From positions 13,973 to 77,972 of the IMG/VR virus record IMGVR_UViG_3300013105_000004: a DNA stretch of 64,000 bases. The stretch is one strand, 5' to 3'. The stretch is from a virus. Its lineage: Duplodnaviria > Heunggongvirae > Uroviricota > Caudoviricetes. Both the position numbers and the translations under genes were made by a program. The notes below the pieces were generated by a model. The model saw nothing but the letters and a program-made list of their open reading frames with translations, searched no databases and was not told the origin of the DNA. Positions 4,660 through 60,275 of this stretch are shown in pieces. Numbering within the stretch: position 1 is the first letter of the stretch; the number at the start of each line of letters is the position of its first letter.

Positions 4660-5605
4660 ACGGCGCTATGGCCCCTCTAAACGCGTCTATGGGCCTGTGT
4701 ATAAAACCTAGAGGAACGTCTGGTCTGTGGACATCCGCCATACCAATGTGGACAACTTTCTAGGCCATTGGCCCGTGCATGCGCCTACGGCTTGCGTACA
4801 GGCCCGTAGAGGGCCGAACGATGTCCCGTTGATGTCCGCACTAGGGCACGATCTGTAAACGCCTCATAGCTCGTTTAAACGATTATAGTTCTGGCCTATG
4901 GCCTAGTGCCAGTCGATAGGGTTTGGCTGGGGCCAATGGCCCATGTATGCAATTTCCGTGCCAAGAAAGAGCGTTTCAATGTGCCGGGGCTAAACAACCC
5001 CGCCGCCCGTCTGTCATTGGATACACATATGAGCATGTCTAGTGCCATAGGCACAGGTTATTATGTACCTGCCCTATGGGCATGGCGTATGCCATAACCT
5101 ATGGCTATGTGCTATTAATTCGCCGTAGGCGATAGTATTTCTGTATGAGGGGATGATATAGGGATGATGAATAGATAGGACTAGGGCCAATGGCCTAGCC
5201 GTATAAGGGGCCAATGGCCCATGTTTGACCCCGTTCAAGGGGTCAAGGGGAGGGAAGAGGGACGAGGGGCCATAGGCCCATGAGATATGTTCTGTGCCTA
5301 TGGCACTAGAGTATGTTGATAACCGTTGCGAATAACAGCCCTGTATGTACGAATGAATAGAGGCGTTTAGAGGCGTTTAAACGGGCTCGCCTATGCCAGC
5401 GTACCAGCGTGATAGCGTTCGTTGAATGTAGGCCCGTTCTGATGCGTCCTAGGGCCATTGGCCCATGTAGCGCTACGTACCATATGCGGATGGGCCTTGC
5501 AGACAGGGCTGTATGAGGGGTCAAGTACCAGTACGTGAGTCATCAAGTATTGACTAAAAGAAATGGCCCGGTACAGCTTACGCCGTCCGGGCCTTTGGCC
5601 TATTC
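4660..5605. repeat. array of ~12 GGCC-(A/T)3-GGCC palindromic sites (e.g. GGGGCCAATGGCCCATG x2 identical 17-mers at 4928 and 5207)
   Basis: copies at ~4760, 4814, 4896, 4930, 5056, 5091, 5190, 5207, 5265, 5298, 5450, 5590; both orientations. Confidence 0.7.
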
Positions 5606-6589: not shown

Positions 6590-6916
6590 TTATTCGCCTT
6601 TCTTTGATAACAACATGGTTGCGGCAAACTTGATTGCCGTATCTTCCGGGTTCCATTCGTAATGCGGTTTGGAGATTTGCCCGGAGATGCTACGCGATTG
6701 CGAGTAATACAGTTGTTCCGTGTCGGCGTCCAAAACTTCAGCGTACGTTGCCCCGTATTTGTTGATTTGGAGATTGCGCACGACGTTAAGGCCCGCTTCA
6801 AACAGGTTAGAGCCATGCGTCACTTTCACGATTTCATTACGGAACACGTAACGGGTTTTCAGGCGCAACGGCGCATCTTTGGTTTTGCCGTTGTTCATTA
6901 CGATTTTGCTAGTCAT
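6590..6916 (-). CDS. hypothetical protein (108 aa)
   Basis: RBS AAGAGGAAATAACATG. Confidence 0.55.
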   Translation of the reverse strand: MTSKIVMNNGKTKDAPLRLKTRYVFRNEIVKVTHGSNLFEAGLNVVRNLQINKYGATYAEVLDADTEQLYYSQSRSISGQISKPHYEWNPEDTAIKFAATMLLSKKGE

Positions 6917-6932
6917 GTTATTTCCTCTTGGT

Positions 6933-7193
6933 TCAATTGATTACTTGGTATGAAATGAGATTGCATTCGGTATCGCCTTTGATACCGGCAATCTTCGTTT
7001 TTGTATTGATGCAAAACGTCCTAGTCATCGTGTACAGCTTATCGCCCACGATACGCGACGGAATCGCTTTGCTAACCGTTTTGCCATTAGGCCGGATGAT
7101 TTCAATATCGGCCAATGCGTTAATCTTGCGAGCGTTGCCGCTACGCATGCGAGTTTGTTTCATGTTCGGTCCTACGTTAAGAGAATCTGACAT
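6933..7193 (-). CDS. hypothetical protein (86 aa)
   Basis: ORF; start overlaps conserved hairpin, true start may be internal M. Confidence 0.4.
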   Translation of the reverse strand: MSDSLNVGPNMKQTRMRSGNARKINALADIEIIRPNGKTVSKAIPSRIVGDKLYTMTRTFCINTKTKIAGIKGDTECNLISYQVIN

Positions 7194-7226
7194 AGCGCAC
7201 GATGCATGCGCTATAGCTGATTAGCT

Positions 7227-7535
7227 CTAGTCCTCATCAAATCCGAAATTGCGCTTTTCTTCGTCCGTCATCAGGTCAGGACAAAGCGCCCACAAATCAC
7301 CATCTTGATGCAACGTCCAACGCCTGCCGTCCTTTTCGTAATAGGCGTTGTTTAGTACAGTTTCCCATGCTTCCCAGTAAAATTCCGTTTCCGGGCCGTT
7401 TGCGAGAATACCTCTATCGTCCATCGACACATGCCAGTCAACAGCGTTAAATGCTTCTACGAAGTTTTGCGGAATGTAAATGCCTCGTGCCGAATCAAGC
7501 AAAAGAGAAACGGCCGGAATTGGTGCGATGTTCAT
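7227..7535 (-). CDS. hypothetical protein (102 aa)
   Basis: ORF in early operon. Confidence 0.5.
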   Translation of the reverse strand: MNIAPIPAVSLLLDSARGIYIPQNFVEAFNAVDWHVSMDDRGILANGPETEFYWEAWETVLNNAYYEKDGRRWTLHQDGDLWALCPDLMTDEEKRNFGFDED

Positions 7536-7582
7536 TTCGATTTACCTTTCATTGGTGAAATTGTCGCTCATTTGAATTCCCC

Positions 7583-8197
7583 TTAGATAGTATTGCCGTC
7601 GATGTCGAATTCATATTCATTAGCGACAATCATTTCTTCGATTGCCTCATCCGACATTTGATAATCGTATTCATCATTCAGGCGTTTATAAATCCAATCG
7701 GCAAAGTCTCGCAACGCTTGTGTAACGTCATCCTCTACCGATTCGATATTGCGGTAATCATCGCCGTTATACGATACGTCAACAGACATACAACCCGAAT
7801 GTTGATAATGCCCGCGTTGCTTCGTGGTTGCCGATAGGCGATAGAAGCAACGTTTCTGAATCGCTTGCAATTCCTTTGCGATACGCTGCAATTCAGTATC
7901 TTGAGGGGCGTACGCTTTGACAGCCTGATATGCCCCTTTAGCGTAGCTGTAGCGTCCCTCAAAACATGCCCCGTCACCTTGTGACGCGAACCCGCTAAAG
8001 TAAATCGACGGGGTATGTTTGCCTTTACGGTCCAATTCGATACCGATAAGCTTTGCCACGCTATCCGCATCAGAATAAACGTCGTCATACCAATCGCTAT
8101 CCGTGCACGTGTTCTCCCGCATCCAGTCGCGTGCTTTGGATTTGGCATCGTCGGACAGCTCGTCATACTTGAAAACGTCTTTAATGATTTGTCGCAT
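7583..8197 (-). CDS. hypothetical acidic protein (204 aa)
   Basis: RBS ACGAGGTATCAAAATG; adjacent to ArdA-like gene; function unknown. Confidence 0.55.
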   Translation of the reverse strand: MRQIIKDVFKYDELSDDAKSKARDWMRENTCTDSDWYDDVYSDADSVAKLIGIELDRKGKHTPSIYFSGFASQGDGACFEGRYSYAKGAYQAVKAYAPQDTELQRIAKELQAIQKRCFYRLSATTKQRGHYQHSGCMSVDVSYNGDDYRNIESVEDDVTQALRDFADWIYKRLNDEYDYQMSDEAIEEMIVANEYEFDIDGNTI

Positions 8198-8262
8198 TTT
8201 GATACCTCGTGTTAGTTAATCCGTAAATGCCCACGTTTGATAATGGGCATTGGCTGATTAGC

Positions 8263-8748
8263 TTATCGGTCGTAGAAATAATAACCGTCGTTTTCAAAGA
8301 ATCCGGACATTAGCAATTCTCTTGAGTAGTGTTCCCAGTCGATATAAGAAAACATAGGGTGATTATCATCAATCATTCCGGAATCAACTGCGTATTCCAT
8401 ACCGAAGTCACTAGGCGAATCATACTTACCACGAAACGCATCACGGGCCGTCTCGAAATCCGCATCACCACAGTTGCCGATATACGCCGCCCACATTTCC
8501 CGGTCTGATTCGTCCAATGCGGCAAGCTCGAAAACCTTTTCGTCAATCGATGATTCGGAAATCAAATCGTTTGGAATGTCTTCCCAATCTTGAAACATGA
8601 ATTCCGGATCGCTTTCCATCGCATGCAATTCCTTGCATGCATCGTAGAATTCGTCTCTATCGGCGTAATCTTCAATGTCCAGCCATGCACCGTAAAGATT
8701 GCCGCTATTGTATTTGCCGTACGTGCCGACATAAACGCGCATAGTCAT
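8263..8748 (-). CDS. ardA: ArdA-like anti-restriction protein
   Basis: N-terminus VYVGTYGKYNSGNLYGAWLD.. resembles ArdA VYIANLGKYNEGELVGAWF; acidic DNA-mimic-like composition. Confidence 0.65.
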   Translation of the reverse strand: MTMRVYVGTYGKYNSGNLYGAWLDIEDYADRDEFYDACKELHAMESDPEFMFQDWEDIPNDLISESSIDEKVFELAALDESDREMWAAYIGNCGDADFETARDAFRGKYDSPSDFGMEYAVDSGMIDDNHPMFSYIDWEHYSRELLMSGFFENDGYYFYDR

Positions 8749-8759
8749 TTCATTCCCCC

Positions 8760-9113
8760 TTATTCACCGTACGCCGATTCGATTTGATTGCCGCAATACT
8801 CGCAAATCAAGTCTTTATCTTCCCAATTGATATCACATACCATTTCACCGTTATGTAATAAGTCACGCGATACGCTTTTGTACTCTTTCCGTGCGCAATC
8901 CATGCAAATGCAATCGCCGTCTTTATTCACGAAGAAAAGCGGATAACCGCCCGGCCATGCATACTTACCGTTACGAATAGTTGCCCGTAGTTCCAGCGTG
9001 GTATGGATGCGTTTAAACGTGTAGCTGTATTTCGGGCGGACTACGTTTAACCCTGCTTTGTGCATTAAGTCACCGAACGATTCAAACACATTGCCAAATT
9101 GATCGTAGCCCAT
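8760..9113 (-). CDS. hypothetical Cys-rich protein (probable Zn-binding)
   Basis: CICMDC...CEYCGN motifs. Confidence 0.5.
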   Translation of the reverse strand: MGYDQFGNVFESFGDLMHKAGLNVVRPKYSYTFKRIHTTLELRATIRNGKYAWPGGYPLFFVNKDGDCICMDCARKEYKSVSRDLLHNGEMVCDINWEDKDLICEYCGNQIESAYGE

Positions 9114-9409
9114 TATTTCACCTTAATTTCAAACTCAAAATGAGTCACTTGTTTAATCGTGATGCCGTAACGCGTCAGGAACGCACCGTAGGCGCTTGCA
9201 AGCGTTTGCCATGCGTCCGCATCGTCCGACATCCCCAAAAGCTCTAGGCGCTTATCTATCGCTTTCTCGTACGTGTCCGCGATGTTATCCGGCGTGACGC
9301 CAAAATCCGTTTGTTGAAATTCGCCCATAACGCGAATGATGAAAGACGATTTGCCATGCTTTCGAAAATACATTCCGATTGGCGAACCGTCATTGTTTAA
9401 TAACTTCAT
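9113..9409 (-). CDS. hypothetical protein (98 aa)
   Basis: ORF, coupled to upstream gene. Confidence 0.5.
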   Translation of the reverse strand: MKLLNNDGSPIGMYFRKHGKSSFIIRVMGEFQQTDFGVTPDNIADTYEKAIDKRLELLGMSDDADAWQTLASAYGAFLTRYGITIKQVTHFEFEIKVK

Positions 9410-9473
9410 TGCGGCATGCCTCCTATAAAAGAATCCGACAATGCCGACATTATCGGCATTAGCTGATTAGCTC

Positions 9474-9817
9474 TTACATTTCCTCATACGTTTTTGCGGC
9501 CCATTCAATGAATGGCGTAATTCCCAAACCATGCAACCCGTAACCGATTGCATCGCCAGCATATTCCAGCACGTGATTTTCCGAGTGTCCTAGCATCTTG
9601 GAAATCAGCACGCCGGTAATTGCTACTGTTGCGCCTGTAATCAGGCGATGCCGTAACGAATGCTCCTTTCCGAACATGGAATTGCAAACGGGCCGAATAA
9701 CGTTGATACGTGCAGCCAGTTTCATTACGAACGGCGTACGCTCTTGCGCTTGCGGCATGACGGACAGTTTGTTTTTACGGCGAAGTGGCGAGGCGTTATG
9801 ACGAAGCATTTTATTAT
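9474..9817 (-). CDS. hypothetical membrane-associated protein
   Basis: start at internal M with RBS GGAAAGGAATAATAAAATG; hydrophobic helix. Confidence 0.5.
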
Positions 9818-9831
9818 TCCTTTCCGGGTTA

Positions 9832-10446
9832 TTAGATATTGAAAAACGATTTGATGTCGTGATGTTTCTTACGCGACGGTGCATGCATATACATAACTTG
9901 CGTATTGCCTACCATTGCATTTAATGCGCTAACCTTGAATTCGGTAACGATGAAATCATTATCGGCCAGCCACTTAATGATTTTGTCGTCGTGCAACCAC
10001 ATACGCGCTTGTTCCACGCTTGCGAAGCCATAACGCCATTTCTGCGCGTCTTCAGTCAATGGCGTGCCGTGAAACATCATCCAAAGCGGATCAGGGTTAA
10101 TCAATCCGCGTGCCGACAATTGCCGCGCTAATTTGGTATCAACAAACGGCGACGGGTGGAGACGTTTATTTTTGCTGTTGTCGTAAAACGGGCATTCCCC
10201 CAAACCCGGATACGGTTCGCAGTTATACATACCCTTTCCGTTATTCTTGTTTTCGATCCGGTAAACAGTAACGGATTCAATCGGCCCCATATTCAGCCCG
10301 TCGCCGTTCATAATGGCTTTTGCTTCGTCCAATTCCGGAGGTTCAAAGTTATTGAGCATGGCCGGAAAGCACAGAATTTCGCTATCGCCGTTGAAAAGGG
10401 AAATTACCGCACCGTCCTCATCGTGTTTCATTTTGATTTTCAGCAT
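9832..10446 (-). CDS. hypothetical protein (204 aa)
   Basis: ORF in early operon. Confidence 0.55.
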   Translation of the reverse strand: MLKIKMKHDEDGAVISLFNGDSEILCFPAMLNNFEPPELDEAKAIMNGDGLNMGPIESVTVYRIENKNNGKGMYNCEPYPGLGECPFYDNSKNKRLHPSPFVDTKLARQLSARGLINPDPLWMMFHGTPLTEDAQKWRYGFASVEQARMWLHDDKIIKWLADNDFIVTEFKVSALNAMVGNTQVMYMHAPSRKKHHDIKSFFNI

Positions 10447-10516
10447 TTTGTTATTCCTCTTGGTTGGATTAGAGTAAATCTACGTATGCCACGCATTAAC
10501 ACGGGCATACATTGAG

Positions 10517-11058
10517 TTACGCCATTTCCAAAACTTCGCAATCGTCCGATACAGGCATATTCAAACGTGCGATGTAACCGGGCAATTGCGTTGCAACCCA
10601 CGCCATTTGATCGTCGGGGAATTCGCCGTTATGGGACATCGCGTAAATGCTTTGGCCGATAGTGTCGGCGTACATCATCAATGCTTCAAGCGAATCATGC
10701 CCGAATTCCTCTTGAACTTCTTTCACGTGGATTGCACCGATTGCAATCTCTTCAGCCGTCGTAAATCCTTTGTTCAAGACGCAATGCAAAACGTCATGCC
10801 AGAAACGGAAAGCGTAATTTGCGCCGGGATTGTTATAAATCGTTTTGTCGCTTTGCCCGTTCCACACTGGCAAGGCCATACGGGACGATTTAGAGGCGTT
10901 CCACGCCGTTTTAAGCTCGTCATAGTCATTCGGTGCATTCGGTACATCGACGTAGCCAAAACCTACCTTAGCGGCCGCCTCGCGTGCTTTGACGATAACG
11001 AAGTTGGACAGGTTACGGCGTGCCGATTCGATATTGTTGATATGTGCGAAAGTCATTT
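10517..11058 (-). CDS. hypothetical protein (180 aa)
   Basis: start MTFAHINN at 11058; ORF track N-terminal extension overlaps hairpin element. Confidence 0.5.
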
Positions 11059-11148
11059 TGTTCCCTAGTTGTTTTTGATTGTCCGGATAAGAGAATCCGA
11101 CATAACGCACGGATGCGTTAGCATCCATACGCTATAGCTGATTAGCTC

Positions 11149-11409
11149 TTAATTGTGGGGTTTTTCCTTTTCAAGCTTTTCGCCGGTTCCACTGAAAATG
11201 TAATGGCTCCACCATTCGCCGTTCTGGTAACTCCACATTGCGCACGAGCGATAAACGATTTCCGGTAAACAGTGGGGCATATTGGCCGAACCAACAAACT
11301 TAACCACAGTACCGGCCCCGATGCTTTCAACCTGCGCTATTGCCTCTTCAGGTGTATCAAAATCTTGATACGTGGTTGCCGTCGATGCGTTGAATTTGAT
11401 GCTATGCAT
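11149..11409 (-). CDS. hypothetical protein (86 aa)
   Basis: ORF. Confidence 0.45.
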   Translation of the reverse strand: MHSIKFNASTATTYQDFDTPEEAIAQVESIGAGTVVKFVGSANMPHCLPEIVYRSCAMWSYQNGEWWSHYIFSGTGEKLEKEKPHN

Positions 11410-11410
11410 T

Positions 11411-11650
11411 TTAAATCCCCTTATATGCGATCAATTCGCCATTGAAGTTATAGACATGCGTAGCTCCGAACTTGCGAGCGTCATAGCATTTAAGCCATTC
11501 GATTGCGGCATTATAGGACCATGCCGAATGTACCGTTTTGAAATGAGAATTGCGGATAGTGTACGGTGCAAGGCAATTTGCGCTTTCCACGATAAACGAG
11601 ATAAGCGCTTTTTTGAATTTCTTCATTATTTCCCCTTGATTAAACATCAC
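11411..11650 (-). CDS. hypothetical protein (79 aa)
   Basis: ORF. Confidence 0.45.
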   Translation of the reverse strand: MMFNQGEIMKKFKKALISFIVESANCLAPYTIRNSHFKTVHSAWSYNAAIEWLKCYDARKFGATHVYNFNGELIAYKGI

Positions 11651-11687
11651 ACGACATAGCGCACATAATGCGCTATAGCTTGGAATG

Positions 11688-11828
11688 TTAAAGGCCCATA
11701 AACAACATCATGCAATCAAAGTAAATTGCCTCATCAAACGACGGAGGCAAGTTATCCATGTGTTGCATTTCCGCCGCCTGAAATTCCGGCGACATTTGCC
11801 AGATACTAATTTCCCAATTGATAAACAT
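11688..11828 (-). CDS. hypothetical small protein (46 aa)
   Basis: RBS AAAGGGTAAACGATG; not in ORF track. Confidence 0.3.
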   Translation of the reverse strand: MFINWEISIWQMSPEFQAAEMQHMDNLPPSFDEAIYFDCMMLFMGL

Positions 11829-11831
11829 CGT

Positions 11832-12041
11832 TTACCCTTTCACGGTTACGGGTTTGCACATTTCGCGTGCCGTGCCCAATGCATCGACATAATCCGGCGT
11901 GAAATAATCGGCCGGTTCGTAATGTTTGCCATGCTCGTGCAACTGGCAAACATATTCGGCCGTTTCGGCATCCTTGCGGATATAGACAGAACGGCCCGTT
12001 TTCGCGACATCCGGTAATTGGACAATTTGAACCAAGCGCAT
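11832..12041 (-). CDS. hypothetical protein (69 aa)
   Basis: ORF. Confidence 0.45.
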   Translation of the reverse strand: MRLVQIVQLPDVAKTGRSVYIRKDAETAEYVCQLHEHGKHYEPADYFTPDYVDALGTAREMCKPVTVKG

Positions 12042-12106
12042 TTTAGTACCTCCGTTTTAAACATCACATACAAAAGCGCTAACCCGTAGCGCTTTAATCT
12101 GAAATG

Positions 12107-12322
12107 TTAGAATTTTGTGGGCAATCCGATCAACCCCAATTCGTTCCATGCACGATTTGCCCGTTGCAAGTTGTTTTGCAAGTTCGGACCGTTTACAGCA
12201 ATCGACATTCCGTAATCTTTAGCGGCCGTTGCATATTCAGTAATCAGGGTTGCCAATTCTTTTTGCTGTTCCGGCGTCATTCCATTCATGATTGCGGAAC
12301 GCAAGTCTTTATGTGCTTTCAT
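12107..12322 (-). CDS. hypothetical protein (71 aa)
   Basis: ORF. Confidence 0.45.
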   Translation of the reverse strand: MKAHKDLRSAIMNGMTPEQQKELATLITEYATAAKDYGMSIAVNGPNLQNNLQRANRAWNELGLIGLPTKF

Positions 12323-12332
12323 TTAATTACCC

Positions 12333-12536
12333 TTAGATGATGAATTCTTTATGATCTTTCACGCCGAACAACCCCGCATATTCCATCAATGCGGCACGTT
12401 GCGCTTTGGTGCGAGATGCCCGAATCAATGCGGACAAGCCACGCGCCACGGTATCAGTCATGTCTCCGAACGCATGGTAGATCGCGAGACGTTCAATTTC
12501 TTTGACTTGCGATTTGTTCAAGACTTCGATTCCCAT
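12333..12536 (-). CDS. hypothetical protein (67 aa), first gene of leftward early operon
   Basis: ORF. Confidence 0.45.
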   Translation of the reverse strand: MGIEVLNKSQVKEIERLAIYHAFGDMTDTVARGLSALIRASRTKAQRAALMEYAGLFGVKDHKEFII

Positions 12537-13128
12537 TTTCTACTCCGTCAGGTGATAAATTCGGAATCGCTATTTCTAACGATTCCTAGTTTTATCAACT
12601 GTGCTAGCGAATCATCACGATTGGCTAGTGTGATGCGGATCAACGGCACGCTTCCCAGCGTTCCTACCCGCCCAAGGGTACGCTTCCCAGCGTTCCCCGT
12701 GATTATGCCTAGTGCGTCCTCTTGAACGGCTATGACATCATTGTCTTACTGATGAATTGTTATAGAGCAGACTTATCGGCGCCCCCGCATTTGCTTTGTC
12801 CCGTGCTATCCATCTAGAGGCATCCGCCACTTCGCACGGGGTTAGCTCCTATGGCTTTGCCCCATCTCACTAGTAGCGTTCTGTACTAGTGAGACTCCAT
12901 TCTAAGGGCTGATTTAGGGATGCGCAATCCCTTTTCGAAAATAATTTGTAACAGGGATTCGGGCCAGTCCGTGAGCCCAAAAGGAAAAGGCGCGCACGTG
13001 CATGCACAGGCGTACGCGCACGCGTAGCAAGAACCGTGCCAAGGCCGATTTTCGGATACTGTGTTTTTATACAGTAAAACGCCGTAGAGACGTTTTTCGG
13101 GCATGGTTGATATGGCGGGCTAGGTCAC

Positions 13129-13918
13129 TGTGGATAACTCAATGGCGCCCCCTTAAAACGCGTTTAAACGCTATGCCATTGTGGATAACTTTTGCCCAAA
13201 ATCATGCGTTTTCGGGGTTGAGCATGTAAATCAGCCTGTTTATTTCTGTGAAATTTACATGAAAACCGCGTCACAATGGACGAGTTATCCACAGGCGATT
13301 CCGTGTTTTCCCTTTAAAATCAACAACTTGAGTCTTATACAAGAGCACATTTCAGTCTTATATAAGACATAGGACTACTCTTGTATAAGAGTGCTATGTA
13401 GGAAACATTTCGTTCTATCGTAGCAACATGGCACAGGTATTGCATAGGCAAGTAGCGTGCCAGTTAGCACTACTTACCACACTACGCCGGGACGGCGAAC
13501 TAAGGGACGCGGCGTCACATTCCGGTATGGCTCGTGCGCTGATACAGTGGGCATTCTGGTATGCGTGCCAGATGTAAGAAGCGTTACTTATGGGCAATGT
13601 AGCCCATCGGCCGACTATTGCCGAAAGGAAAAGTATTGCTAGGTTGCTAACACTACGTACGCCGGACGGCATCGCGTACTTTGCTATCGATTCCACCCTA
13701 GCGATAGGATTCGTTGTTTGCTATCGGTTCCTAGCAGTCGGTAGAAGATAGCGCTTTCCTATCGGCTGGCGTTATATGATAGGCGTTAGGCTATCGCCTG
13801 TGGATAACCTGCCGTCAGAGCAACATTGTGACCGAACGACCGTGCTATTTGACAAGTTGTCCACAGAACGGTCGTGCTTTTCCGTGGTTGTCCACAGGTT
13901 ATCCACATTTTATCCACA
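13129..13918. promoter_or_regulatory. DnaA-box cluster: perfect TTATCCACA at 13129-13137(-), 13180-13188(-), 13285-13293(+), 13799-13807(-), 13899-13907(+), 13910-13918(+); TTGTCCACA at 13857-13865 and 13888-13896
   Basis: six exact matches to the 9-mer DnaA box consensus plus two 8/9 matches within 800 bp of non-coding DNA. Confidence 0.7.
13333..13395. repeat. nested palindromes: CTTATACAAGAG inverted repeat pair flanking perfect palindrome GTCTTATATAAGAC
   Basis: read directly from sequence. Confidence 0.6.
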
Positions 13919-14000
13919 AAAAGTGCTTTTGAGCAACTTTCCACCGTTTCGGCCTGTTTCTGAGGGCGGATTGGCGGGTTTTCTCTTTAAGAAGAGACTC

Positions 14001-14080
14001 AAAAATTCCCCATCCCCTGTAGAAATTCTGACTTTTGAATTCCATATCGGATTTCGAAAACTATTCCACAAACGAAAACG
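14001..14080. repeat. ~80-bp direct repeat copy A (CCCCATCCCCT..TAGAAAT..TTTTGA.TTCCATAT.GGATTTCGAAAA..ACGAAAA)
   Basis: ~80% identical to copy at 16841-16920. Confidence 0.7.
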
Positions 14081-14131
14081 CCCCAGCAAGGGCCGGGGCG
14101 CGTTTTGGCGGGAAATTTTACGCGGGGCGCG

Positions 14132-14762: not shown

Positions 14763-14795
14763 CTACAAAAAATAAAGGCCCGCAATAGCGGGCCT
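14763..14795 (-). terminator. Rho-independent terminator (AGGCCCGC-loop-GCGGGCCT + TTATTTTTTG on - strand)
   Basis: hairpin plus T-run downstream of 14818..14979. Confidence 0.6.
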
Positions 14796-14817
14796 ATACA
14801 CTGGTAGCACTACTTAC

Positions 14818-14979: not shown

Positions 14980-15288
14980 GTCTTGCTCCCTAGTTGGTTG
15001 TGACGCCGTGCGTCGTTAAGTAGTGCTACGTATGATAGTGGCCGATGAAAAACCCGTCAAGGGTTTTGTGCAGAAATCAGCCGGGGAAGAATTTGTTGCG
15101 AGGACGCCACACGGACAGGCCGAGGGTGACATTGAGGCGATACCATGCCGGGGTTGGCTGGTTGACGACGCGCCAGATGGCGGGAATGTCGAGAAGAGTT
15201 TTCATATCACGTCGTAGGGGACAGGAGTTGATGGAAATCAAACGATATCACATCATCCTGTCCCGCACAACGGCTAACCCGTGCGGGT

Positions 15289-17314: not shown

Positions 17315-17658
17315 TGTCCAATACGTACACCAAAGCGCAGCTCATTCGCATTTGCGAGAAGGCTAAGGAAATTTTGTGGAATGGTAAAGGGCCATTCGCC
17401 CCGCACCGGAAGGAAGAGTATGTGTGCTTCGCGCTGACCAAAGCTACATGCTCCCTGCACGGGCGGTCCTGTTCCCGTCCGTATGAGCTGACGGAGCTTG
17501 TGAAACGTCACATCCATAACAACGTTTACCTGACGTGCTTCCTCCTCAGGAAGTTCGGGGATCATAAGGTAAACCTTATGACGAGCGAACAAATTCAGGC
17601 ATGGCGCTTCCTGATGCTGGACAACATGATTAAAATTCTCAAGGAGAAATCGACGTGA
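17314..17658 (+). CDS. hypothetical protein (114 aa)
   Basis: ATGA-coupled ORF. Confidence 0.55.
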   Translation: MSNTYTKAQLIRICEKAKEILWNGKGPFAPHRKEEYVCFALTKATCSLHGRSCSRPYELTELVKRHIHNNVYLTCFLLRKFGDHKVNLMTSEQIQAWRFLMLDNMIKILKEKST

Positions 17659-19025
17659 ACAATACGTACACCATCGTCAAGAGCCTGCAAACGGCTCAGG
17701 GCAACATTGCCAAGCAAGCGATCCTCGACGCCAACAAGGGCAACGAGAACTTCAAGGCGTACATGAAGGCAGTGTATGACGTAGGTATCAACTACTACCA
17801 ATCGAAGCTGCCGAAGCTGACGCCCGGATTCGGTGTTGCAGAGTTCGGTGAGGCAGATATGCGCTTCATGGAGCATCTGTCGAATCGCGTGTACACCGGG
17901 ACGGAAGCTGTCAACCGCCTGAAAGGCCATGCGTCAGCGCTGAACCCGGAAGGGCAAGAGCTGCTGGGCCTGATGCTGAAGCGCTCCATCGGGGCATCCG
18001 TAGGTGATACGATGGTACTGAAGACGTGGCCCGACCTGTACTTCCTGCCTCCGTACCAGCGTTGCTCGCTGCTGGACGCGAAGGCTCGTGAACGGTTCGG
18101 CAAGCTGAAGCGCTTCTACGTCCAGACCAAGGCAGACGGTTCGTTCGCGTACGTCGTGAAGCGTCTCGACGGCTCCGTGGATGTCATTACGCGGCAGGGG
18201 TCGAAGTATCCGCAGTGGTTCGCTGAAAAGCTCACCTACGGCATGAAGCCGGGAACCGTGTTGGTCGGTGAGTTGCTGGTCAACGAACACTGCTACGTGG
18301 ACGGCAAGGAGGCAGAAATCGGGCTGGAACGTAAAGAAGCCAACGGCCTGCTGAACTCAGCCCTGAAAGACGGCGAAAAATTCGATCTGACGAAGTCTGT
18401 TCGCATGGAAGCGTGGGATTTACTGACCGAGGAAGAATTCGTCGCTGGCAAATCGAACCGTGACTACGACACTCGCCTCCGTTCGTTGATCTACGAAGTA
18501 ACCAAACTGTCGCGTGGACAGATTACGATGATCCAGACGGACGAAGTTGGTTCGTTGGAGGAAGCGTTCGCTATCTACCAGAAGCGTTTGCAGGAAGGGT
18601 TGGAAGGCTGTATCATCAAAGACCCTGCCTCGCTGTGGAAGGACGGAACGAGCAAAGACATGGTGAAGCTGAAGATCAAGTTCCAAGTGGAGATGCGCTG
18701 TACTGGCGTCTACGAGGGTGAAGGTAAGGCTGCTGGCATGTTGGGCGGTATTTACATCCAATCGGAAGACGGTGCTATCGAGTGTGCGTGTGGCTCCGGC
18801 TTCACGGATGCGGATCGTAAGCATTACTGGGCGTTCAAGGAGAACATCATCGACTTCGTTGTTACCGTGGAAGCGAACGATATCACGCAGTCGCGGGACG
18901 ACCGGAAGAAGCCTTCGCTATCGCTTCCGATCTTCATCGAAGTACGGCTGGACAAGATGCACGCTCACGCTGATACGGCGGACCGCATCTACGCACAGCT
19001 CGAAGCAGCGAAGCAAGGAGGTTGA
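17655..19025 (+). CDS. ATP-dependent DNA ligase
   Basis: nucleotidyltransferase motifs I KADG, III LVGELLV, IV EGCIIK, V MVKLKIK, VI LPIFIEVRLDK. Confidence 0.8.
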   Translation: MNNTYTIVKSLQTAQGNIAKQAILDANKGNENFKAYMKAVYDVGINYYQSKLPKLTPGFGVAEFGEADMRFMEHLSNRVYTGTEAVNRLKGHASALNPEGQELLGLMLKRSIGASVGDTMVLKTWPDLYFLPPYQRCSLLDAKARERFGKLKRFYVQTKADGSFAYVVKRLDGSVDVITRQGSKYPQWFAEKLTYGMKPGTVLVGELLVNEHCYVDGKEAEIGLERKEANGLLNSALKDGEKFDLTKSVRMEAWDLLTEEEFVAGKSNRDYDTRLRSLIYEVTKLSRGQITMIQTDEVGSLEEAFAIYQKRLQEGLEGCIIKDPASLWKDGTSKDMVKLKIKFQVEMRCTGVYEGEGKAAGMLGGIYIQSEDGAIECACGSGFTDADRKHYWAFKENIIDFVVTVEANDITQSRDDRKKPSLSLPIFIEVRLDKMHAHADTADRIYAQLEAAKQGG

Positions 19026-19416: not shown

Positions 19417-19429
19417 TTCGTAGTGCTAC

Positions 19430-19492: not shown

Positions 19493-20650
19493 ATGGCTGA
19501 ACGTAAACTAGCGACCATTCGCCGTATCAAACAAATCCTGCCCATCGCTGGTGCAGACAAGATCGAAACCGCTCTGGTCGATGGCTGGCAAGTCGTCGTG
19601 AAGAAGGGCGAATTCACCGAAGGCCAACTGGCCGTCTACTTCGAAATCGACTCGTGGGTGCCGAACACCATCGCACCGTTCCTGACGAAAGAAGGCTACG
19701 ATCCGAAGGAATTCAACGGTGTGAAGGGCGAGCGCCTGAAGACGATCAAGCTGCGCAAAACGCTGTCGCAAGGTCTGCTGCTGCCTCTAAGCGTGGTCCC
19801 GCATTATGAGCAAATCCCGGCTGAAAGCCGTGGCATGGACGTAACTGAAGCGCTGGGCGTCCAGAAATGGGAAGCGCCGGAAGAGAAGGCTACCAACAAC
19901 GGCCCGACCGCTTCGAAGACTCGCTCGTTCCCGTACTTCATCCGCAAGACGGATCAGGAGCGTGCTCAGAACTACGGTCACATGATCGAAGCCAACCTCG
20001 ACACGAAGTTCGAAGCAACCGTGAAGAAGGATGGCTCCAGTCTGACGGTATTCCGCGTCGTTCCGGGTAGCGAATACTACGAAGACGCGAAAGCTCTGGT
20101 GCAAGGCAAGCAATCGCTGTTCACTCGCATCAAGAACTTCGTGCTGCGCAAGAAGGCTGAACCAGTGTACGGCCTGTGCTCGCGTAACGTCCTGCTGCCG
20201 TTGGAAGGTAACAGCAATTTCCATATCGCTGCCAAGCCTCTCATCGAGAAGCTGAAGAACGACGTGTCGATTGCCCTCGAAGGCTCCATCGCCCTGCAAG
20301 GCGAGCTGGTTGCTCCGGACATCCAAGGCAACTACGAGAAGGTGAAGGACGTGGAATTCCACCTGTTCGACATCTTCCAGATCGACCGGCAAGAGTACTT
20401 CCTCCCGCTGGAGCGCATTGTGTTCGCTGACATCTACGGTATCAACCACGCTACCATCGTGGACCGTGGAACGCTGCGCAACATCCTGCAACTGAAGGAA
20501 GGCGAAGATGTCGTGCAAAAGCTCTTGACGTACGCGTCGGGCGAAGGCGATAATCCGGGTGTGATGCGTGAAGGCGTTGTGTTCAAAGCGGCCGACAAGG
20601 ACTTCAGCTTCAAGGTCATTTCGAACGAATACCTTCTGCACAAGGGTTAA
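19493..20650 (+). CDS. ATP-dependent RNA ligase-like (Rnl2/PF09414-type) nucleotidyltransferase
   Basis: N-terminus KLATIRRI..PI.GADKIE...VDGWQVVVKKGEF; motifs KKDGSS, QGELV, EGVVFK, FKVIS. Confidence 0.55.
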   Translation: MAERKLATIRRIKQILPIAGADKIETALVDGWQVVVKKGEFTEGQLAVYFEIDSWVPNTIAPFLTKEGYDPKEFNGVKGERLKTIKLRKTLSQGLLLPLSVVPHYEQIPAESRGMDVTEALGVQKWEAPEEKATNNGPTASKTRSFPYFIRKTDQERAQNYGHMIEANLDTKFEATVKKDGSSLTVFRVVPGSEYYEDAKALVQGKQSLFTRIKNFVLRKKAEPVYGLCSRNVLLPLEGNSNFHIAAKPLIEKLKNDVSIALEGSIALQGELVAPDIQGNYEKVKDVEFHLFDIFQIDRQEYFLPLERIVFADIYGINHATIVDRGTLRNILQLKEGEDVVQKLLTYASGEGDNPGVMREGVVFKAADKDFSFKVISNEYLLHKG

Positions 20651-34709: not shown

Positions 34710-34785
34710 GGGTCGTTAGCTCAGTGGATAGAGCACGGGACTTCTACTCCTGCTGTCGTAGGTTTGAATCCTACACGACCTACCA
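34710..34785 (+). tRNA. tRNA-Arg (anticodon UCU)
   Basis: cloverleaf: acceptor GGGTCGT/ACGACCT, D-arm GCTC-AGTGGATA-GAGC, anticodon stem CGGGA/TCCTG loop CTTCTAC, T-arm GTAGG-TTTGAAT-CCTAC, encoded CCA. Confidence 0.85.
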
Positions 34786-36041: not shown

Positions 36042-36110
36042 TGTAAGGAACGTTAGCTAACACGCCCGCTACTCGAAAGGGTAGTGGGCGTTTTCCTTTA
36101 GGAGAACGTA

Positions 36111-40384: not shown

Positions 40385-40444
40385 ATTCGCCTACACGGAG
40401 GCTTCGGCCTCCGTTTTCATTCAACTAACAAAAGGAAATAGAAA

Positions 40445-45708: not shown

Positions 45709-45892
45709 AGGTAAATTCATTCCGGGCTGGTGCCTGAACCCGAACATGGTGCTCCGTAACGGTGTGTACCGTGCTGGCGTCCGTGCTGGTAAGTACGCCA
45801 ACGTGAAGGGCGTACGCAACGCTTTCGATGGCTACGCTACCATCCCCGGCCTGAGCTTCATCCGCTCGATCCGTATGGAGGCTTACGTATGA
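45689..45892 (+). CDS. hypothetical protein (67 aa)
   Basis: RBS ACAAGGAGAAGAAAATG. Confidence 0.5.
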   Translation: MSRNQREGKFIPGWCLNPNMVLRNGVYRAGVRAGKYANVKGVRNAFDGYATIPGLSFIRSIRMEAYV

Positions 45893-46704
45893 GCCTGCGC
45901 ATCGTGCACCGTATCGATACGGGCTTCACCAAGACGACGTTTCCGGGCGGCGAATCCTGCATCCGCGTAGCGGACAATCTGGACGCTGACGAAATCATCG
46001 TCGGTCTGGACTTCGAATCGAACGTCGATCTGTTCGATCTGGCCCTGCTCGTGGATGCTCTGCGTCGGCAATATCCCGGCACTCCGCTGCGATTGTTTAT
46101 GCCGTACGTACCGTACGCTCGTCAAGACCGCGTGTGCAACGAGGGCGAGAGCCTGTCGATCAAAGTCGTGGCAGACTTCATCAATTCGCTGAAGTTCGAA
46201 CGCGTCTGCATCTTCGACCCGCACTCGGATGTCACGACTGCCCTGCTGGATAACGTGGACGTGTACTCTCAAGAGTTTGCTGCAAAACCTCTTGCCCGTG
46301 CCACGGACCCTAGTAACACTATCATCGTTGCTCCGGACGCCGGGGCTTCGAAGAAGGCAAGCAAGTTTGCCAAGGAAGGAGGGTTCGCTGGCCTAATCCA
46401 AGCGGAAAAGGTTCGTGATCTGCTGACCGGCAAGATTCTGGAAACGCGTGTCCCGGACATCCTCGCCGGGAACATGGACCTGCTGATCGTGGACGACATC
46501 TGCGACGGTGGCCGTACGTTCACGGAACTGGCGAAAGTGCTGCGCTCGAAGACGACCGGCAAGATTCTGTTGTACGTAACGCACGGTATCTTCAGTGCTG
46601 GCCCGGAAGTGTTTGACGGACTGATCGATAAGGTGTACACTGCTAATCCTGTCGGTGCTACTGGCAGGTACGCAGTGTCATCTTGTAAAGTAGTCAAACT
46701 GTAA
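45889..46704 (+). CDS. ribose-phosphate pyrophosphokinase (Prs)-like enzyme; candidate ADP-ribose pyrophosphate synthetase (Adps) of an NAD+ reconstitution pathway
   Basis: PRPP-binding loop LIVDDICDGGRT; MPYVPYARQDR matches Prs motif; shorter (271 aa) than canonical Prs. Confidence 0.7.
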   Translation: MSLRIVHRIDTGFTKTTFPGGESCIRVADNLDADEIIVGLDFESNVDLFDLALLVDALRRQYPGTPLRLFMPYVPYARQDRVCNEGESLSIKVVADFINSLKFERVCIFDPHSDVTTALLDNVDVYSQEFAAKPLARATDPSNTIIVAPDAGASKKASKFAKEGGFAGLIQAEKVRDLLTGKILETRVPDILAGNMDLLIVDDICDGGRTFTELAKVLRSKTTGKILLYVTHGIFSAGPEVFDGLIDKVYTANPVGATGRYAVSSCKVVKL

Positions 46705-46972: not shown

Positions 46973-48598
46973 ATGAAAATCAAACCGCACCTGATCCTCG
47001 ACTCGTACAAGCTGGGCCACATCGACCAGTATCCGGAAGGCACGCAATACGTGTACTCCAACCTGACGGCTCGTTCGGCTGGTCACGCCAAGATGGGCAA
47101 GCTGTACGACAACAAGGTGGTGTTCGTCGGCCTGCAAGGCTTCGTGAAAGAGTTCCTGATCGAAGCATGGAACGAACACTTCTTCAAGCGCCCGAAGGAC
47201 GAAGTGATCGCTGAATACAAACGTCGCTGCGACAACTTCCTCGGCCCGGATGCCGTTCGTACGGACCACATCGCTGCTCTGCATGACCTCGGCTACCTGC
47301 CGATCATCATCAAGGCTCTGCCGGAAGGTTCGCGTGTGGACATAAAGGTTCCGTTCCTGACGATCCGTAACACCCTGCCGCAATTCTTCTGGCTGACGAA
47401 CTATCTGGAAACGGTGTTGTCGGACGAGATGTGGCAACAAATCACGGTAGCGACCATTACGTACGAATACCGTCGCATCCTGAACAAATTCGTGGACCTC
47501 ACCGGCTCCGACATCGGCTTTGCCGATTGGCAGATTCACGATTTCTCGATGCGTGGTATGGTCGGCTGGCACGGTGCAGCCAAGGGCGGCGCTGCTCACC
47601 TGTTCATCTCGCGTGGTACGGATACGCTTCCTGCTATCGATTATCTGGAAGAGTACTACAACGCCGACGTGACGAAGGAACTGGTGGCGGGTTCGGTCCC
47701 GGCTACCGAACACAGCGTCATGTGCATGGGTGGCAAGGATGATGAAATCGGTACGTTCCGCCGTCTCATCAAGGACGTGTACCCTTCGGGCATCGTCTCC
47801 ATCGTGTCGGATACGTGGGACTTCTGGCAAGTGATTACGGAGTACGCCAACACGCTGAAGGATGATATCCTGAACCGTACCCCGAACGCTCTGGGTCAAG
47901 CGAAAGTGGTGTTCCGTCCAGACTCCGGTGATCCCGTCAAGATCGTCGCTGGTCTGCGTGCAATCGAGTTGAACGAAGTGAGCGAAGACAACTTCTTCCG
48001 GTATGATGTCGTTATCAAAGACGGCAAGTACTACGAGTTCGAAGCGGCCTTCTGCGGCGATCTGTGCGAGTGCATGCTGGATATCGAACTCGGCCGTGAA
48101 GTGCCCGAGCACGAAGTCAAGGGTGCTGTCGAATGCCTCTGGGACATCTTCGGCGGCGACGTGACGGCGAAGGGCTACAAGACGTTGAATCAGCGCGTGG
48201 GCCTGATCTACGGCGATTCGATCACGCTGAAGCGTGCAGAAGAAATCCTGCAACGCCTGATGGACAAAGGCTTCAGCGCTGGTAACATCGTGTTCGGTGT
48301 TGGTAGCTTTACGTACCAGTACATCACTCGTGATACGTTCGGCATGGCTGTCAAGGCTACGTGGGGCGTCGTGAATGGCAAGGCTCTGAACATTCAGAAA
48401 GACCCGAAGACCGGCGACGGTATGAAGAAGTCGGCAACGGGCCTGCTGCGTGTCGAGAAGGAAGGCGACAAGTTTGTGCTGTATGACAAGCAATCGATTC
48501 ACGACGAAATGCTGGGCGAGCTGGAAACCCTCTTCGTTGACGGCCAGTTGCTGCGCGATGAAACGTTCGCTACCATCGTAGAACGTCTCAAGCAGTAA
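46973..48598 (+). CDS. nicotinamide phosphoribosyltransferase (NAMPT/NadV)-like enzyme; candidate Namat
   Basis: N-terminus LILDSYKLGH..; 541 aa NAPRTase-family length; leader AACCAATCAACCAAGGAGAAAACAATG. Confidence 0.75.
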   Translation: MKIKPHLILDSYKLGHIDQYPEGTQYVYSNLTARSAGHAKMGKLYDNKVVFVGLQGFVKEFLIEAWNEHFFKRPKDEVIAEYKRRCDNFLGPDAVRTDHIAALHDLGYLPIIIKALPEGSRVDIKVPFLTIRNTLPQFFWLTNYLETVLSDEMWQQITVATITYEYRRILNKFVDLTGSDIGFADWQIHDFSMRGMVGWHGAAKGGAAHLFISRGTDTLPAIDYLEEYYNADVTKELVAGSVPATEHSVMCMGGKDDEIGTFRRLIKDVYPSGIVSIVSDTWDFWQVITEYANTLKDDILNRTPNALGQAKVVFRPDSGDPVKIVAGLRAIELNEVSEDNFFRYDVVIKDGKYYEFEAAFCGDLCECMLDIELGREVPEHEVKGAVECLWDIFGGDVTAKGYKTLNQRVGLIYGDSITLKRAEEILQRLMDKGFSAGNIVFGVGSFTYQYITRDTFGMAVKATWGVVNGKALNIQKDPKTGDGMKKSATGLLRVEKEGDKFVLYDKQSIHDEMLGELETLFVDGQLLRDETFATIVERLKQ

Positions 48599-60249: not shown

Positions 60250-60275
60250 GAAAAAGAGCCTCCCGAGGGAGGCTC
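60249..60275 (-). terminator. Rho-independent terminator (GAGCCTCCC-TCG-GGGAGGCTC + TTTTTCTT on - strand)
   Basis: perfect 9-bp stem + T-run. Confidence 0.8.

Follow-up and report, generated by a model that had tools for sequence, protein, structure and literature searches.

A covarying hairpin repeated between early genes of unrelated phages, and its candidate role as an RNase III-type processing signal

Four junctions between early genes in the window (the whole 64,000-nucleotide stretch of a Caudoviricetes record that was analysed) carry the same element. It is a repeated sequence with a covarying fold and a regular position and orientation relative to the flanking genes, it is widely distributed among phages and prophages, and it lies at mosaic junctions. 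Readings of the element as a terminator, promoter, MITE, attC site or CRISPR repeat fit worse than one in which the family serves to process or stabilise mRNA, as an RNase III-type signal like those in the early region of T7. This is our best reading, reached by comparative analysis and held tentatively, at somewhat less than an even chance.

The exact 11-mer AGCTAATCAGC has four matches in the window against 0.02 expected, and none of 100 shuffles reaches four. All four (7216-7226, 8253-8263, 9462-9472 and 11137-11147) are on the minus, coding strand, on which ORFs end at 7227, 8263, 9474 and 11149, with one copy directly after each stop codon. The motif that the initial annotation had reported behind stop codons at four junctions is thus borne out, except that at 8263 it is GCTAATCAGC that follows, the leading GA being absent. 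A hairpin with a stem of 9-16 bp lies 3' of every copy, and 3' of each hairpin is a second conserved box, GUCGGAUUCUCUU or ACGGAUUAACU (7178-7187, 8212-8222, 9426-9436 and 11088-11098). Because this 3' box pairs with the 5' box, each element is one long interrupted hairpin of 55-70 bases, in which a lower stem that includes the upstream stop codon is followed by a 3x3 internal loop, an upper stem of 9-16 bp and then the Shine-Dalgarno sequence (SD) and ATG of the next gene. The hairpin sequences had been described as different each time; this holds for the upper stems, but their bases share YAWWGC...GCWWUR. Three further hairpins that had been noted as related are real, one of them (11651-11681) matching the core of our covariance model and the others (12060-12109 and 10474-10520) folding with the same layout. 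The initial annotation had missed the 3' box, and also how widely the element is distributed and that it is linked to mosaic junctions. The true extents of the four elements, their variants and candidate relatives are as follows.

11086 to 11152, minus strand: full element W11 (covariance model R1, 60.3 bits, E=6.7e-15; fold -33 kcal/mol, z=-5.2), with stop UAA at 11149-11151, 5' box AGCUAAUCAGC at 11137-11147, a 16-bp upper stem with four G.U pairs at 11101-11136, 3' box GUCGGAUUCUCUUA at about 11088-11100, and the next ATG at 11056.
9424 to 9477, minus strand: full element W9 (model score 66.4 bits, RNA fold, ORF ends), with stop UAA at 9474-9476, 5' box at 9462-9472, a 10-bp upper stem at 9439-9461, 3' box GGAUUCUUUUA at 9426-9436, and GGAGG followed by the ATG at 9409 directly 3' of the element.
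8210 to 8268, minus strand: full element W8, directly after the ArdA gene (68.1 bits; fold z=-3.35), with stop UAA at 8263-8265, 5' box at 8253-8263, a 9-bp upper stem at 8226-8251, a 3' box of the 'AAC' flavour, ACGGAUUAACU, at 8212-8222, and the next ATG at 8197.
7176 to 7231, minus strand: full element W7 (64.7 bits; RNA fold), with stop UAG at 7227-7229, 5' box at 7216-7226, an 11-bp upper stem at 7191-7215, 3' box CAGAUUCUCUUA at 7178-7190, and an ATG at 7163.
11640 to 11692, minus strand: variant 'class 2a' (model core match at 11651-11681, 25.4 bits, E=1e-4; fold z=-3.1), with the same core (AGC-UAUAGCGCA...UGCGCUAUG-UCG) on a different lower stem, AACAUUCCA : UGUGAUGUU, stop UAA at 11688-11690, and the next ATG at 11626.
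12060 to 12109, minus strand: variant 'class 2b' (fold z=-2.4; a 12-mer in common with class 2a), with the lower stem as in class 2a, AACAUUUCA : UGUGAUGUU, an internal loop and upper stem that have diverged, AAAGCGCUA...UAGCGCUUU, stop UAA at 12107-12109, and the next ATG at 12041.
10474 to 10520, minus strand: intercistronic hairpin of the same layout and its own sequence (fold -22.4 kcal/mol, z=-5.0), with stop UAA in the 5' arm of the lower stem, a 12-bp upper stem, and the next ATG at 10446.
12553 to 12597, minus strand: two-tier hairpin from the hairpin scan, a candidate relative only, in the leader of the block's first gene, with lower stem UGAUAAA : UUUAUCA, a 10-bp upper stem, and an ATG at 12536.

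The 12-mer common to the two variants is UGUGAUGUUUAA, at 12057-12068 in class 2b and at 11640-11651 in class 2a, and an orthologous copy of class 2a is found in the relative L038 at 4855-4885. The hairpin at 10474-10520 gave no match to covariance model R1 and is, by its layout, a candidate member of the family; for that at 12553-12597, the ORF list holds no upstream ORF ending there.

The helices are supported by covariation. Across 20 distinct copies of the element, core pairs are formed in 96.8% of cells, against 80.8% in shuffles and 25-39% pairing in slid-alignment controls; compensatory changes are seen in 7 of the 14 core pairs, and none of the 500 shuffles reaches the observed score. 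The interrupted helix totals about 20-23 bp, made up of a lower stem of 7-10 bp, an internal region of three positions and the upper stem, the base of which is conserved as YAWWGC. The 3x3 internal loop is itself conserved (5'-AGC / 5'-NCG), with a central G-C pair flanked by non-canonical pairs. The distal part of the lower stem covaries as a block: GAG precedes the box in all nine copies with 3' arms in CUCUU or CUUUU, and in just one of ten 'AAC' copies, which has the matching CUC. Among the variants, L011 and L041 carry C-G to A-U and A-U to C-G swaps, while in L044, L041 and L045 diverged copies retain the AGC...NCG core on wholly different lower stems. Two copies in L037 have an extra mini-hairpin of 14 nt at the same point of the 3' arm, and helix insertions of this kind are commonly tolerated by structured RNAs. 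As regards strand, model scores are 50-70 bits in sense against 19-45 in antisense; folding energies show no significant preference, sense being the better strand for 18 of 30 copies (p=0.7) and antisense for the 'AAC' flavour, which has a conserved C.A mismatch that accounts for this. The element is absent from Rfam, a search of Rfam 15 yielding only sub-threshold matches at chance level (E>1), none of which fits the elements as a family.

The window comes from an uncultured phage of about 90 kb that carries the elements between its early genes. Every copy examined in its context, here and elsewhere, is in an early operon, in the sense orientation of the flanking genes. In the group of ~90-kb phages the upstream ORF ends inside the 5' arm in 19 of 20 copies, and in 28 of 30 copies overall an ORF led by an SD starts 9-37 nt downstream; at most copies in temperate prophages no long ORF ends at the element. 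Conservation in related phages, which the initial annotation had suggested checking, is partial: the element is present in four related ~90-kb viral contigs, but a covariance model search found none in L039 and L040, which are close relatives, and it is therefore not essential to this lineage of phage. Unrelated temperate prophages of Moraxella/Faucicola, phage Mcat8 among them, carry it too, again in early operons, where it adjoins CI-like repressors. A scan of 185,579 species genomes gave two true matches, one in the early operon of a Faucicola prophage, the second on a short contig of a Moraxella MAG, and five chance matches without the hairpin. Wherever context was examined, the element was found solely in phage or prophage DNA.

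Comparison of flanking sequences shows the element to be a homology island at mosaic junctions, where gene blocks have been swapped between phages. This is seen in three ways. First, the upstream flank of W7, which marks the edge of a homology block with L038, is unrelated in three phages, and the element is conserved. Second, downstream of W8 four phages have unrelated flanks, and the element is again conserved; the gene upstream of W8 is, by Pfam match, the anti-restriction gene ArdA of the early region. Third, L019/L028 and L021/L002 have the element and the downstream gene in common and differ upstream, starting at the edge of the box. One breakpoint is at the 5' edge of the box; others coincide with the 3' end of the element or lie as much as about 30 nt past it.

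If the element acts as RNA, as we suppose, what might it do? We suggest that it would form a structured RNA in the sense strand of early polycistronic transcripts, and that a host double-strand-specific endonuclease, probably RNase III, would cut at or near the internal loop. The upstream message would then end in a 3' hairpin as its cap, the downstream gene would gain a short, defined leader, and separate mRNAs would result from blocks of one to three early genes. The element also, at least passively, allows early-gene cassettes to be exchanged between phages, serving as a homology patch since it is the sole conserved sequence between otherwise unrelated gene blocks.

The likeness to T7 RNase III sites proposed in the initial annotation finds partial support in a shared layout and in the covarying helices. 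As in a T7-type substrate, there are about 20 bp or more of helix, a loop closing two coaxial stems, an interruption of upper and lower stem by mismatches or an internal loop, and a sense-strand location that is either intercistronic or in the leader of an early operon. We folded the T7 R0.3, R0.5, R1 and R1.3 regions and recovered the same architecture: the stop codon lies within the 5' arm of a lower stem or immediately precedes it (seen in R0.5 and R1), an internal loop separates this stem from an upper one of about 10 bp with sequence recurring between sites, and the ribosome-binding site of the next gene follows. The T7 early sites (R0.3, R0.5, R1, R1.1 and R1.3) are likewise sense-strand hairpins between early genes, several per operon, in which about two helix turns run from the upstream stop codon to shortly before that ribosome-binding site. 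In T7 the internal loop is the site of single-strand cleavage, and the position of the R0.5 cut falls in its 3' side. The two differ, however, in several respects. There is no sequence similarity; the internal loop of T7 is larger and asymmetric, whereas that of the element is small, symmetric and 3x3 with a central G-C pair; the element is common to unrelated phages, both virulent and temperate, that infect another host family; and cleavage is proven for T7 but predicted for the element. Upper stems of 9-16 bp also make the distance from terminal loop to internal loop variable, which counts against the reading. Moreover, RNase III has little sequence specificity, and alone it therefore cannot account for an invariant 11-nt box and a conserved loop in unrelated phages. 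Its inhibitory (antideterminant) base pairs, in the proximal and distal boxes, follow rules set out for the E. coli enzyme and counted from a known cut.

An invariant 11-nt box and an asymmetric internal loop AGC/NCG, conserved while the surrounding helices covary, would suit a sequence-specific RNA binding site, recognised by a protein of the Moraxellaceae host or by a phage protein that is widely shared, and not a cleavage site. We consider this unlikely. [quoted passage not shown] A phage-encoded factor, which had been put forward earlier as an alternative, is weakened by the presence of the same element in unrelated temperate Moraxella/Faucicola prophages, which makes a shared host factor likelier than a protein of the phage. 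Like lambda-type nut sites and rrn boxA-boxB, the element has, within an early operon, a hairpin together with a conserved short box that is single-strand-like; in the prophages it lies beside CI-like repressors, as nut sites do in lambda, and the CUCUU-flavour 3' arm (UUCUCUUAAC) resembles the NusB/NusE boxA consensus, GCUCUUUAAC. However, a boxA-like sequence of the kind that is single-stranded in nut sites (GCUCUUUA) is confined to the CUCUU flavour and is absent from the 'AAC' flavour, that is, from half of the family. Even where it is present, the GGA and CUCUU segments are base-paired and not exposed. With four to eight copies per operon, the element is also far more numerous than a nut site need be, and we found no candidate protein common to the phages that carry it.

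That mosaic junctions are where the element lies raises a further question, which is whether the element is instead a DNA-level site of recombination or mobility, like attC or a miniature inverted repeat, marking a cassette boundary for a recombinase or transposase. On this account the hairpin would form in single-stranded DNA, and early and anti-defence genes would be actively moved between phages. The homology island lies exactly at mosaic breakpoints, with the upstream divergence of L019/L028 and L021/L002 beginning at the box edge; the same element occurs in unrelated types of phage; and for the 'AAC' flavour the opposite strand gives the better fold. As in integron arrays, an ORF is followed by an imperfect inverted repeat or palindrome with conserved ends and a variable centre, then by a promoterless ORF, in fixed orientation and at cassette boundaries. 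We nevertheless judge such a site improbable. Breakpoints do not fall at one fixed nucleotide, so homologous exchange fits better than site-specific exchange, and by inspection the boxes (AGCTAATC / GATTAACT) depart from the attC core sites RYYYAAC/GTTRRRY. Of the roughly 30 window ORFs tested, none has an integrase or transposase domain. In a non-exhaustive comparison of loci, we found neither a target-site duplication nor an empty site, and in no pair of relatives were both flanks homologous with the element missing between them. A MITE or Correia-like repeat would have many dispersed copies in host chromosomes, against two true matches in 185,579 species genomes. The Correia/nemis repeats of Neisseria are similar in being imperfect inverted repeats with conserved arms, co-transcribed with their neighbours and forming long hairpins; cutting by RNase III has been reported for nemis, as it is proposed for the element, and short words such as GGATTAAC are common to both. 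Correia repeats are 100-150 bp long, with hundreds of chromosomal copies and TA target duplications, whereas the element has 55-70 nt.

A broader form of this idea, that the element is a dedicated portable cassette junction acting either as folded DNA or through RNA, has in our estimation the same small chance. If correct, it would mean that unrelated virulent and temperate Moraxellaceae phages exchange small early and anti-defence genes (ArdA and many of unknown function), and that captured genes arrive correctly oriented and already equipped for expression. The element would then be a phage counterpart of the integron attC site or of the promoter-early stem-loop (PeSL) cassettes of T4-type phages, reportedly described by Arbiol, Comeau and Krisch in 2010, but with neither promoter nor known recombinase. 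PeSLs are also repeated intergenic regulatory modules with a stem-loop that bracket small early ORFs at the junctions of shuffled blocks, and they contain a sigma-70-type early promoter. The elements, by contrast, have no promoter consensus in or beside them, and their conserved parts are the two arms of one long hairpin. Searching for -35 and -10 hexamers with 16-18 bp spacing within the repeat gave no promoter-like site on the coding strand of any element, and the region as a whole has 11 such sites against 18.8 expected.

That the elements are terminators or attenuators, partitioning the early operon and read through by means of an antiterminator, seems very doubtful. They are stable hairpins between genes, with a moderately U-rich 3' arm (AUUCUUUUAU), but 8-9 nt separate the U-rich stretch from the GC-rich upper stem, and the stretch forms pairs of its own within the lower stem. 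They thus differ from an intrinsic (rho-independent) terminator, in which a U-tract immediately follows a GC hairpin. The initial annotation was right that T-runs in this sense are missing; the copy at 9424-9477 alone was flagged by a terminator scan, and only in an alternative register. Terminator-like sites in the region number 18 against 17.5 expected, and the canonical GC-stem and T-run terminators on the same strand, at 14078-14101 and 14776-14795, are unlike the elements.

Scarcely credible, finally, is the idea of an RNA anti-CRISPR (Racr), in which each element would sequester Cas proteins by mimicking, as a solitary copy, a CRISPR repeat of the host. The 3' box GGAUUAAC is faintly like the type I-C 5' handle, GGAUUGAAAC, GGAUU being the sole sequence known to be shared with type I-C repeats, and no CRISPR repeat class is known to resemble the element overall. 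The anti-restriction gene ArdA does belong to the early region in which the elements lie. Solitary repeat mimics are known to be encoded by phages, often among anti-defence genes (PMC10651486). Against this, however, the long lower stem enclosing a stop codon has no known counterpart in CRISPR repeats, and the sequence of the upper hairpin varies between the copies of one genome.

From ~12,540 to 5,000 the window carries small genes on the minus strand, ArdA among them, and at the junctions between genes an 11-mer, AGCTAATCAGC, recurs in four exact copies, all on the minus strand, against 0.02 expected:

7216-7226, minus strand, exact copy of AGCTAATCAGC
8253-8263, minus strand, exact copy of AGCTAATCAGC
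9462-9472, minus strand, exact copy of AGCTAATCAGC
11137-11147, minus strand, exact copy of AGCTAATCAGC
8263-8748, minus strand, ArdA, within the block of small genes

As the initial annotation had proposed, each copy lies directly 3' of the stop codon of a minus-strand ORF and has a hairpin downstream, whose stem we put at 9-16 bp, and RNA folding shows that the three related hairpins it pointed to (10474-10520, 11640-11692 and 12060-12109) are real. The sequence it placed after the stop codon holds for the other copies, but one lacks the leading GA; the hairpins do vary, as it stated, but their bases are alike between copies (YAWWGC...GCWWUR). A second conserved box, GUCGGAUUCUCUUA or ACGGAUUAACU, lies 3' of each hairpin and had been missed. 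The observation of a repeated intercistronic element holds and is taken further here.

The 5' and 3' boxes are complementary, and RNA folding gives one long interrupted hairpin. Its distal lower stem is either AAGAG:CUCUU, with CU bulged, or AG(C)U:A(A)CU, and the next helix segment is AAUC:GAUU; there follows a 3x3 region, 5'-AGC / 5'-NCG, whose middle positions form a G-C pair, and above it stands the upper stem. In the lower stem, the 5' arm includes the stop codon of the upstream gene, the Shine-Dalgarno sequence and ATG of the next gene come 9-37 nt past the 3' arm, and the elements delimit blocks of one to three genes. An alternative lower stem, AACAUUYCA:UGUGAUGUU, is common to the copies at 11640-11692 and 12060-12109, and in the former the core is unchanged despite the different stem. 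Two copies in L037, a ~90-kb relative (8223-8300 and 9055-9135), each contain an extra 14-nt mini-hairpin, TGCTACAAGTAGCA and TGTTCTAAAGAACA, inserted in the 3' arm at the identical point, immediately following GATT, whereby the lower stem becomes a three-way junction. By inspection, the internal loop fits neither a K-turn nor loop E.

A covariance model (R1), built with its alignment from 20 distinct copies, matched only these elements in the 64 kb, scoring 60-68 bits in the sense orientation versus 21-35 in antisense. Core cells are paired in 96.8% of cases in the 20-sequence alignment, versus 80.8% in shuffles and 25-39% when partners were slid; 7 of 14 pairs have changed on both sides, and no shuffle reached the observed score. 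Covariation in the distal stem is block-wise: all nine CUCUU-type copies have GAG before the box, versus one of ten AAC-type copies, that one having the matching CUC, and variant copies show both C-G to A-U and A-U to C-G swaps. Folding energy did not favour sense over antisense across the family (p=0.7), because the AAC flavour has a conserved C.A mismatch. G.U wobbles were discarded as proof of RNA-level selection: of seven window copies tested, six bear the argument out, but the family does not. The case for RNA is based instead on three features: copies never depart from the sense orientation, the conserved loop is asymmetric, and the element keeps a fixed position relative to stop codon and ribosome-binding site.

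When viral contigs were scanned with an exact pattern, true copies, each comprising box, hairpin, 3' box and SD/ATG, came up in four related ~90-kb contigs and in prophage-like contigs of 35-53 kb that are unrelated and derive from isolate genomes. Two close relatives (L039 and L040) are without the element, and two more distant ones (L044 and L045) keep the AGC...NCG core on different lower stems. With one genome per species, a genome scan found the element only in Faucicola mancuniensis and one Moraxella MAG. BLAST searches of phages with two flavours of the element, and of plasmids with one, gave a single match, an unannotated intergenic stretch of Moraxella catarrhalis phage Mcat8; plasmids yielded no match to the flavour used. 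A core-pattern scan of metagenome contigs returned 26 matches, all due to chance and lacking box prefix or hairpin, and a paper on M. catarrhalis prophages makes no mention of intergenic repeats or hairpins. Both annotated temperate loci have the element in the early operon: in L019 a CI-like repressor precedes it and gam, sak4 and ssb come after, and in the Faucicola prophage L029 it sits between KilA-N and YqaJ/RecT genes. Since the prophages (~40-42% G+C) differ in composition from the 90-kb phages (~50%), a Moraxellaceae host for the window phage is one that we only infer.

For comparison, we folded the early intercistronic regions of T7, with the cleavage coordinates reported by Dunn and Studier (1983). 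T7 R0.3, R0.5, R1 and R1.3 form the same two-tier hairpin as the element, the upper-stem sequence recurs between T7 sites, and in R0.5 and R1 the lower stem's 5' arm contains the upstream stop codon or begins right after it. The reported R0.5 cut falls on the 3' side of the internal loop. Given this shared architecture, we tentatively liken the element to a T7-type RNase III signal, built and perhaps working like one, with cleavage putative; the analogy had been drawn in the initial annotation and is the best available explanation, at a little under an even chance. A sequence-specific protein-binding role, also raised there for a phage factor, is one of two main rivals and rather unlikely.

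The other main rival, an active role in recombination, bears on the mosaic structure of these genomes. Homology with L038, another ~90-kb relative, spans 8181-11153 and 6590-7228, and the genes between the elements at 8210-8268 and 7176-7231 (7227-8197) are replaced in L038. Alignments show the element at 7176-7231 conserved in three phages whose upstream flanks differ, and that at 8210-8268 conserved in four whose downstream flanks differ; prophage copies have element and downstream gene in common and differ upstream from the box edge on. Because the breakpoints are at no single fixed nucleotide, homologous exchange at a conserved patch would fit them better than site-specific recombination, and we regard an active role as improbable. 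A 98-aa gene (9113-9409) directly follows an element copy in the window, and coordinates place its homologue after the element in all three 90-kb relatives in which one was found (L037, L038 and L041); in an unrelated 45.8-kb contig (L011, 343-645) a homologue with ~70% nucleotide identity lies two genes downstream of the element. Gene and element together exemplify a unit common to different phage types. In a PDB sequence search, no match was obtained for four proteins whose genes lie just downstream of elements.

The remaining readings fare worse: boxA fits only half of the family, and an RNA anti-CRISPR is less probable, no similarity having come to light in its support. Scans speak against a terminator and a promoter, copy number is too low for a MITE or Correia-like repeat, and attC is dismissed on a consensus that the boxes do not match and on the lack of an integrase; among ~30 window ORFs, Pfam and PHROGs searches turned up neither an RNase III nor an integrase or transposase.

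As a structured RNA or DNA motif carried by phages, the element forms a new family whose general kind is already known, and it is unusual in being common to unrelated phages and in marking cassette seams. If the RNase III reading is true, it adds a covariation-supported phage RNA motif to those known, Rfam holding no such family even at permissive thresholds, and the T7 strategy of cutting an early polycistronic message into stable units reaches an uncultured 90-kb phage group and Moraxella prophages. That unrelated phages keep the box nearly unchanged is indicative of recognition specific to the host, a step open to experimental identification. It offers a concrete case of a small regulatory element becoming a seam for phage genome shuffling and could serve as a marker of early, probably anti-defence, gene cassettes; Mcat8-like prophages in M. 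catarrhalis strains are a possible experimental system.

The window (52.5% G+C) comes from a 90,744-bp contig of run SRR7975608 and encodes RtcB, DNA and RNA ligases, a primase/helicase, a family-A DNA polymerase, ribonucleotide reductase and NAD-salvage enzymes. The closest cultured phages are of the Pseudomonas phiPsa374/PN09 type, with protein identity of only ~57% (primase/helicase). Megablast of the early region and its relatives against 50,697 phage records gave no useful match, and Pseudomonas phage Pyxpy01 was set aside as a comparison, the region upstream of its primase/helicase being arranged differently. The RtcB-type RNA ligase, ATP-dependent DNA ligase and second RNA ligase (1107-2315, 17655-19025 and 19493-20650) suggest a capability for RNA repair, for example against host tRNA-cleaving defences. 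A PRPP-synthetase-like gene (45889-46704) adjoins that for nicotinamide phosphoribosyltransferase, of NAD salvage (46973-48598), and there is a single tRNA-Arg(TCT) at 34710-34785.

A near-palindromic 10-mer, GTAGYGYTAC, occurs at 22 sites on both strands, versus 0.33 expected, for example:

14804-14813, GTAGYGYTAC
15020-15029, GTAGYGYTAC
19420-19429, GTAGYGYTAC
26005-14, GTAGYGYTAC
38826-35, GTAGYGYTAC
38840-49, GTAGYGYTAC
43779-88, GTAGYGYTAC
60276-85, GTAGYGYTAC

The inspected sites are intergenic, and a TTGACA hexamer immediately follows two of them (e.g. GTAGTGCTACTTGACA at 19420). In this phage the 10-mer probably serves as an operator or is associated with promoters, and it is unrelated to the hairpin element. 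No convincing ORFs lie within ~1.5 kb of the early region (12600-14080), in which a number of short direct repeats occur; among them are TGTGGATAACT, a match to the DnaA-box consensus TGTGGATAA, at 13119-13139 and 13170-13190, and CGCTTCCCAGCGTTCC, twice within 12641-12696. This stretch may be an origin of replication or a locus for a non-coding RNA. Likely true terminators, each a canonical GC-rich hairpin and then a T-run, are found at:

14776-14795, minus strand, GC-rich hairpin and T-run
14078-14101, minus strand, GC-rich hairpin and T-run
36062-36091, GC-rich hairpin and T-run
40395-40414, GC-rich hairpin and T-run
60256-60275, GC-rich hairpin and T-run

The first two flank a 198-aa gene that lies just downstream of a promoter-like site, TTGACG-17-TATCAT (15060-15032).
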